A stretch of 64,000 nt of DNA. It comes from Escherichia coli. Lineage in GTDB: Bacteria > Pseudomonadota > Gammaproteobacteria > Enterobacterales > Enterobacteriaceae. This document shows, piece after piece, positions 61,076 through 62,147 of this stretch. How positions within the stretch are numbered: the stretch's first letter is position 1; each line of letters opens with the position of its first letter. Position numbers and translations under genes: made by a program. The notes below the pieces were generated by a model. That model had not been told where the DNA came from. It did no database searches and was given only the letters and a program-made list of their open reading frames with translations. The stretch lies in the NCBI RefSeq assembly GCF_013315695.1, contig NZ_CP054353.1; one strand, 5' to 3'.

Positions 61076-61628
61076 TTACGATTTACAGTTGAGTTGCGGC
61101 GTTTCCGCCCCGTAGTCATTGATAGTTCGGTACGTTACGCTGCTGTTTTTGGCACCCATTGGCAGAGAGAATTGGTATTTATCAAAGGGGGAAATCATTT
61201 GATTTTTAACTACTTTTCCACCTATTTTCAGGTCTGTCAGGGTAATGAAATAAGGTGTTGGGTTACTGACCGTAACCATGTCAGCTGACGAAGTGCAACG
61301 CAGTTTCGCCGGAGCCTCGGCTAAGGGATACGCTAAACCTTTTGGTCGCCAGAAAAGTTTGATGACGCTTTGTGTGGCAATCTTCAGGGTATTGCCTTCT
61401 TCCCGCTTCGTTGTTGAAGGGACTGCCCGTACGCTGGTGAAGAAAAGAGTTTCTCTGTCTTTCGCCAACGGCGCGCCAATGTACATAATGCGTAGCAGGT
61501 TCTCGTTTGCCGGATTCAGCACAAATAGCGGTGGTGTAATAATAAAGTCCGCTGACTTTTTATTATCTGGTGTCATCACCCATGACTGAATCAGATAAGG
61601 AACATCCGGACTGGTGTTACGTACACCC
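61076..61628 (-). pseudogene. elfD: Fimbrial chaperone ElfD, 5'-truncated by IS1
   Basis: C-terminal about 184 codons of a PapD-like chaperone abut the IS1 end at 61629; no signal peptide or native start remains. Confidence 0.8.
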
Positions 61629-61643
61629 GGTAATGACTCCAAC

Positions 61644-62147
61644 TTATTGATAGTGTTTTATGTTCAGATAATGCCCGATGACTTTGTCATGCAGCTCCAC
61701 CGATTTTGAGAACGACAGCGACTTCCGTCCCAGCCGTGCCAGGTGCTGCCTCAGATTCAGGTTATGCCGCTCAATTCGCTGCGTATATCGCTTGCTGATT
61801 ACGTGCAGCTTTCCCTTCAGGCGGGATTCATACAGCGGCCAGCCATCCGTCATCCATATCACCACGTCAAAGGGTGACAGCAGGCTCATAAGACGCCCCA
61901 GCGTCGCCATAGTGCGTTCACCGAATACGTGCGCAACAACCGTCTTCCGGAGCCTGTCATACGCGTAAAACAGCCAGCGCTGGCGCGATTTAGCCCCGAC
62001 ATAGCCCCACTGTTCGTCCATTTCCGCGCAGACGATGACGTCACTGCCCGGCTGTATGCGCGAGGTTACCGACTGCGGCCTGAGTTTTTTAAGTGACGTA
62101 AAATCGTGTTGAGGCCAACGCCCATAATGCGGGCTGTTGCCCGGCAT
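61644..62147 (-). CDS. insB: IS1 InsB (transposase C-terminal part, made as InsAB' by -1 frameshift)
   Basis: 167-aa [30 protein letters not shown]... Confidence 0.9.

Follow-up and report, generated by a model that had tools for sequence, protein, structure and literature searches.

The window, by which we mean the whole 64,000-nt stretch of Escherichia coli DNA that was analysed, carries an IS1 element fused to a truncated elfD gene, and we consider it very probable that this arrangement arose as the cryptic elf (ycb) chaperone-usher fimbrial operon decayed in two IS1-driven steps. In the same reading, an open reading frame that starts inside the IS1 end is incidental, and the genes from elfC to ycbF are most likely silent. 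Sequence comparison shows the insertion, the deletion and the truncation of the protein; the expression state is inferred. In the first step, IS1 inserted at about codon 50 of elfD, duplicating the 9 bp CGTACACCC, with insAB pointing in the same direction as the elf genes. In the second, the DNA abutting the left inverted repeat (IRL) was lost as far as a target hot spot of IS1 that lies 133 bp upstream of ssuE, either by intramolecular transposition of IS1 (adjacent deletion) or by recombination with a second, co-oriented IS1 at the hot spot. With it went 5′ elfD, elfA, which encodes the major subunit, and the part of the divergent control region nearest to elfA. The reading frame that starts in IS1 would then be a mechanical consequence of the elfD frame meeting a TTG in the right inverted repeat (IRR), and elfC-elfG-ycbU-ycbV-ycbF would be left without a promoter and essentially silent, with at most faint read-through from insAB.

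The initial annotation had named the element as IS1, and its structure agrees: it is 768 bp long, its inverted-repeat ends were found, and the insA and insB frames and the A6C motif are present. It is a complete, IS1A-type copy at 61629..62396 on the minus strand and the only IS1 in the window. The terminal inverted repeats, located by pattern search, are imperfect and about 23 bp long (GGTAATGACTCC... and GGTGATGCTGCC...). The IRR (GGTAATGACTCC...) ends at 61629, where it abuts elfD DNA, and the IRL (...GCATCACC) ends at 62396. Listed as an ORF of 91 codons, insA occupies 62066..62341 (minus strand); the insB frame (61644-62147, minus strand) closes with a TAA stop at 61646-61644, and the programmed -1 frameshift motif AAAAAAC lies at 62090-62084, also on the minus strand. 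Both genes thus share strand and direction with the elf genes. For the identical copy in strain MSB1_4I, PGAP gives the name 'IS1-like element IS1A family transposase, programmed frameshift'. We did not find an 8-9 bp target-site duplication around the IS1 of the window, the flanks being CGTACACCC and AGCCCTTTC. The duplication is missing because of the later adjacent deletion, and its absence is no argument against the identity of the element.

The history of the locus is preserved in related genomes. In AF3 (NZ_OZ547117.1), which belongs to the same clone, there is no IS1 at this position and both elfA and elfD are intact; the same holds for MS 21-1, also of this clone. Over window positions 1-24000 the identity of AF3 and MS 21-1 is listed as 100.0%. 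Both flanks of the window are 100% identical to AF3, in which the deleted segment is found exactly. MSB1_4I (NZ_LR898874.1) has the IS1 at the same base with CGTACACCC on both sides, the mark of a simple insertion that duplicated 9 bp of its target; beyond the element, 5′ elfD and elfA are still present. Window positions 52300-62396 and 62397-64000 are 100% identical to MSB1_4I, with 0 mismatches, and the sole difference over those spans is a segment of 999 bp (L001 10098-11096) that is missing next to the IRL. The resulting deletion scar lies at 62396..62397 (unstranded), between flanks that are 100% identical to both MSB1_4I and AF3. The lost 999 bp consist of one copy of the 9-bp duplication, 57 codons of 5′ elfD, elfA and 222 bp of the 355-bp elfA-ssuE spacer; without the duplicated 9 bp, the deletion amounts to 990 bp. 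AF3, MSB1_4I and the window thus read as a series, running from an intact operon through insertion of IS1 in elfD to loss of the 999 bp abutting the IRL.

IS1-mediated adjacent deletion, by intramolecular replicative transposition, was reportedly described by Reif and Saedler in 1975, and the mechanism proposed here, IS1 insertion followed by adjacent deletion, is of a kind already known. IS1 typically produces deletions that begin next to the element and leave it without flanking direct repeats, according to a passage in PMC9330008 that cites Turlan & Chandler 1995. In the window, the very end of the IS forms one edge of the deletion, the element itself and its other flank are unchanged, and the duplication is lost. 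The retained flank is that of the simple-insertion allele of MSB1_4I, and other IS1 insertions have used the site of the new junction. We detected no difference from an IS1 adjacent deletion, and the sequence fits homologous recombination between two co-oriented IS1 copies equally well. The exact deletion junction of the window was not found among complete E. coli genomes; the closest match in a single piece (94.5%) came from a deletion of independent origin.

The open reading frame at the IS1/elfD boundary (61076..61642, minus strand, 188 codons) has precisely the limits first given for it in the ORF list, ends at the elfD stop codon and, as had been noticed, takes its first codon (61642-61640) from within the IS1 terminal repeat (IRR, 61629..61651, minus strand). 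It had also been described as beginning with a Met codon, which does not survive a reading of the sequence, as the codon is TTG and not ATG. On the minus strand the start reads ...CAA-TAA-G-TTG-GAG-TCA-TTA-CC/G-GGT-GTA-CGT..., in which TAA is the insB stop and the slash marks the junction, so the TTG lies 1 base past the insB TAA and in a different frame. The TTG and four IS1 codons are joined in frame to the elfD remnant, although strictly the IS1 share is only 4 2/3 codons. An in-frame stop (61660-61658) is found 16 nt upstream of the TTG; the elfD frame is open for 31 bases into the IRR, and it is in this interval that the TTG falls. The earliest in-frame ATG is at 61576, which is codon 23 of the ORF and lies 53 bases inside the elfD DNA abutting IS1.

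We asked whether such a frame might be translated and checked every start of the hybrid ORF. There was no Shine-Dalgarno core 5′ of the TTG or of any later in-frame start, which makes translation unlikely. Ribosomes that finish insB might in principle reinitiate and translate the remnant, but insB is read only after a rare frameshift, at ~2% (PMC12428005), so that few ribosomes would reach its stop. By our estimate, which takes 3 of the 61 sense codons per position as start-like, a start-like codon is expected in the 10 open codons before the junction in roughly 40% of cases. The hybrid ORF is no more than a chance by-product: an IS1 that interrupts a gene in this orientation and phase always brings the TTG with it. 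In HCP30S3_I2 an independent IS1 insertion lies 4 bp away in another phase, and because the phase differs it would not form the hybrid ORF. In MSB1_4I, where the junction is identical, PGAP annotates a pseudogene 'missing N-terminus'.

The truncation of elfD, and the lack of a signal peptide in its product, are borne out by alignment to the intact ElfD of CE10. Intact ElfD is 233 aa long and begins with an N-terminal signal peptide (MKTCITKGIVTVSLTAILLSCSFTWA), followed by the first strand GVGLAATRLVY with its conserved arginine. The elfD remnant, a pseudogene at 61076..61628 on the minus strand, encodes only ElfD residues 51-233 plus the stop, so residues 1-50 and with them the signal peptide and the first beta-strand (ATRLVY, conserved Arg) are gone, and the sequence M/L-E-S-L-P precedes residue 51. 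In the Pfam comparison, PapD_N (PF00345) was matched from profile position 22, covering positions 22-125 of 126 in the remnant vs 1-125 in intact ElfD, and PapD_C (PF02753) was complete. These losses agree with the earlier prediction that a chaperone fragment, if made, would stay in the cytoplasm and probably not function. We expect the remnant to yield little product or none, and whatever was made would be a cytoplasmic fragment without chaperone function.

Downstream of the remnant, all five genes are intact ORFs on the minus strand: elfC (58451-61051), elfG (57390-58460), ycbU (56836-57378), ycbV (56313-56828) and ycbF (55610-56347). The block from 55610 to 61051 is identical to the MSB1_4I DNA, in which PGAP flags none of these genes as a pseudogene. 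The locus corresponds to the E. coli elfADCG-ycbUVF operon (ycbQRST...; PMC5797941, citing Korea et al. 2010), with the same location, the same gene order and the divergent ssuEADCB genes beside it, and like that cryptic operon it has its downstream genes intact. It differs from the complete operon in lacking elfA, the first 50 codons of elfD and the elfA-proximal 222 bp of the control region. The elfADCG-ycbUVF genes are described as one cryptic, H-NS-repressed operon that is controlled from the 355-bp ssuE-elfA spacer, where SlyA binds to control it (PMC5797941). Comparison with MSB1_4I and AF3 upholds the view that elfC-elfG-ycbU-ycbV-ycbF are promoterless, since the native elf promoter region is deleted. 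In the intact relative, the strongest candidate for a promoter directed at elfA (TTTAAA-17-TATTAT, top score) sits in the deleted segment.

If any transcript does reach these genes, read-through from the promoter in the IRL (pIRL) appears from the sequence to be a more plausible source than a promoter formed at the junction, because insAB and the elf genes are co-oriented. In this case pIRL transcripts would cross insA and insB, leave IS1 through the IRR and reach the elfD remnant and elfC, which would then be expressed weakly and constitutively, with no need of the lost elf promoter. The inward promoter pIRL (CTGCCA-16-TATGAT, 62389-62362, minus strand) scored at the 99.89th percentile with our position weight matrix and was the only minus-strand consensus match in 60900-62600. 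A scan for terminator-like hairpins found none from the insB stop to elfC, and elfC has its own GAGAG ribosome-binding site. In addition, lacZ placed after the insAB′ stop was expressed in chromosomal, frameshift-fused IS1A/IS1E constructs (PMC12428005). In those constructs, however, insA and insB were fused and insB was therefore fully translated, unlike in native IS1.

Several observations led us to regard expression by read-through as unlikely all the same. In native IS1, insB and ~590 nt of elfD-remnant RNA would be untranslated, and this RNA is richer in C than in G: C/G exceeds 1 in most 78-nt windows, with a peak of 1.6-1.8. An untranslated, C>G-rich RNA of this length favours Rho termination before elfC. 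IS1 is classically polar in both orientations, which also counts against read-through. The promoter pIRL is weak and autorepressed by InsA, as is established and as titles cited in PMC12095673 and PMC9330008 indicate, and IS1 contains a transcriptional terminator according to Hubner 1987 as cited in PMC12095673. Finally, co-oriented IS1 brought no gain in expression for ugd and osmB in ST131 (PMC8764528).

The initial annotation had suggested that the IS1 end might itself supply a promoter, with the -35 in the IRR and the -10 in the elfD flank forming a hybrid sigma-70 promoter that drives the remnant and the usher operon. The general premise agrees with the literature: passages in PMC8764528 and PMC9330008, citing Prentki et al. 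1986, state that IS1 inverted repeats hold an outward -35 and can form hybrid promoters, with bla TEM-1, acrEF and afaA as cases, and in other contexts the IRR end can act as a functional -35 (PMC8764528). Its application to this junction found no support in the sequence. The sole IS1/flank candidate is TTGGAG-17-TAACAC (61614..61642, minus strand), in which the -35-like outward hexamer TTGGAG (61642-61637) lies 8 bp from the IS1 end and TAACAC is at the optimal 17-bp spacing. TTGGAG shares 3 of 6 positions with TTGACA, namely the TTG; TAACAC likewise matches at 3 of 6 and lacks the near-invariant T at -7, and spacings of 16 and 18 bp were worse. The candidate therefore has 3+3 of 12 matches, and a consensus scan with a threshold of 9/12 reported no outward promoter at the IRR junction. 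Ranked among all 127,936 positions on the two strands of the window, its position-weight-matrix score of 3.56 falls at the 97th percentile, which is chance level, with ~3% of all window positions scoring as well. The matrix is a simple sigma-70 model that is blind to other sigma factors and to activator-dependent promoters.

A close counterpart is the afa operon of ST131 (PMC8764528; the IS1 hybrid promoter was first described by Prentki et al. 1986), in which IS1 likewise lies upstream of, and co-oriented with, a chaperone-usher operon and offers an outward -35. There, the co-oriented IS1 raised afaA by about 7 log2 via a strong hybrid promoter with a strong, properly spaced -10, whereas the window has TAACAC with its chance-level score. 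Moreover, IS1 in the window sits inside a gene, and the major-subunit gene and the chaperone N-terminus have been removed. In the same ST131 study, co-oriented IS1 lowered osmB and left ugd unchanged; neither has a good -10, and the authors concluded that activation requires a well-placed -10 (PMC8764528). InsA binds IS1 ends, going by the title of Zerbib 1990 as cited in PMC12095673. The clone has a very high IS1 load, with at least 40 IS1-matching places per chromosome in MSB1_4I and AF3 (IS1-end queries), which implies that InsA is plentiful in trans and that IS1 is still driving rearrangements in the lineage. Because InsA binds the ends and the clone has so many of them, the IRR is probably occupied. 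Overall, we consider a hybrid promoter at the elfD junction very unlikely.

Within the elfD remnant, promoter-like sites occurred at chance frequency (observed vs expected: 20 vs 17.7, 6 vs 5.9 and 2 vs 1.2). Two of them, both on the minus strand, scored high: TTCAGT-17-GATAAT at 61562-61590 (99.84th percentile) and CTGACA-17-AAAAGT with an upstream TG at 61212-61240 (99.91st percentile). Both intragenic sites could turn active if the loss of the AT-rich elfA and spacer DNA weakened H-NS silencing. An Rfam scan of 60000-64000 found no RNA families. Were weak IS1-derived transcription, from insAB read-through or from the poor hybrid site at the IRR, to free elfC-ycbF from H-NS and SlyA, the usher and the second chaperone YcbF might build a short fibre lacking ElfA and tipped by ElfG, and thereby a rewired adhesin, an outcome that we hold to be extremely unlikely.

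Many E. coli genomes have an IS1 near the locus; its position varies widely among them, and both orientations occur. We took a census of their orientation in 5,426 complete E. coli genomes with natural and synthetic inverted-junction queries. On the elfD side, IS1 was present in the orientation of the window in 24 genomes and in the opposite one in 17; on the ssuE side the counts were 26 and 68, the latter inflated by one clone. There was thus no bias in IS1 orientation toward the elf genes in these 5,426 genomes, and the counts give no sign of selection for transcription into elf. The same genomes contained at least about 24 distinct junction distances over the stretch from elfD through elfA to the spacer.

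The AT-rich ssuE-elfA spacer upstream of ssuE holds a cluster of four independent IS1 ends, spaced no more than about 35 bp apart (window position 62397 +/- 35 bp). These are an insertion in 22F46 with the target duplication ATAAATATG, the deletion end point of the window (62397), an insertion in EC5 and many related genomes with the target duplication GCCCTTTCT, which is in the opposite orientation and 1 bp from the window junction, and the end of an independent elfD-remnant-IS1-ssuE deletion in HCP4S3_I4. This clustering places the right junction of the window in an IS1 target hot spot. Dozens of clinical genomes share the GCCCTTTCT insertion, among them those of a strain named ST361 and of a KPC/NDM strain. 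IS1 ends were located at 2647 in L004 (HCP4S3_I4), at 1880/2647 in L005 and at 2380/3147 in L006. It is a remote possibility that selection, and not merely a target hot spot, lies behind the recurrent independent insertions and deletions that IS1 has caused in these 1.3 kb.

The HCP4S3_I4 locus (L004 1463-2768) is a convergent deletion with an elfD remnant of 423 nt and an IRL about 120 bp from ssuE, and its elfC has an internal stop. Other breaks are annotated in related strains whose elf operons are otherwise intact, elfG being frameshifted in CE10 and elfC in MS 21-1; these frameshifts suggest either frequent decay of the operon or sequencing errors. Broken elf genes in CE10, MS 21-1 and HCP4S3_I4 fit an operon that is often dispensable.

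We give almost no credence to an assembly artefact in which two co-oriented IS1 copies, in elfD and at the hot spot upstream of ssuE, were collapsed into one and hid an intact 990-bp segment: other genomes do carry real IS1 insertions at both positions and 768-bp repeats are a classic cause of such collapse, but a full IS1 is crossed inside contiguous 64 kb in a clone with dozens of IS1, which implies a long-read or finished assembly, and the independent deletion in HCP4S3_I4, with other end points, indicates that such deletions occur.

On the ssuE side, the two-step decay that we favour has left 133 bp of upstream DNA (62397..62529, plus strand) between the IRL and the ssuE ATG at 62530, the deletion having taken the 222 bp of their shared control region that lie farthest from ssuE on the elfA side. 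The strongest promoter-like site directed at ssuE, TTCAGA-17-TATATT (62417-62445, plus strand), starts 20 bp from the IS1 end. The IRL also offers an outward -35 toward ssuE, TTGGCA, which is better than that of the IRR and is paired with TAGCTT at 19 bp (99.77th percentile). The literature searched contained no mapped coordinates for the ssuE promoter. If TTCAGA-17-TATATT is the ssu promoter, activator sites upstream of it, for Cbl, IHF and SlyA, may have been lost.

The locus is a clean example of two-step IS1 erosion of a cryptic fimbrial operon, with three stages kept in one clone. It also illustrates why a reading frame that begins within an IS end should not be taken as evidence of expression. 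Should IS1 drive what is left of the operon after all, this would be one more silent adhesin activated by an IS, as is known for afa in ST131. For the physiology of the organism, the regulation of sulfonate utilisation by ssuEADCB, whose upstream DNA has been cut 133 bp from the start codon, may matter more than the elfD ORF.
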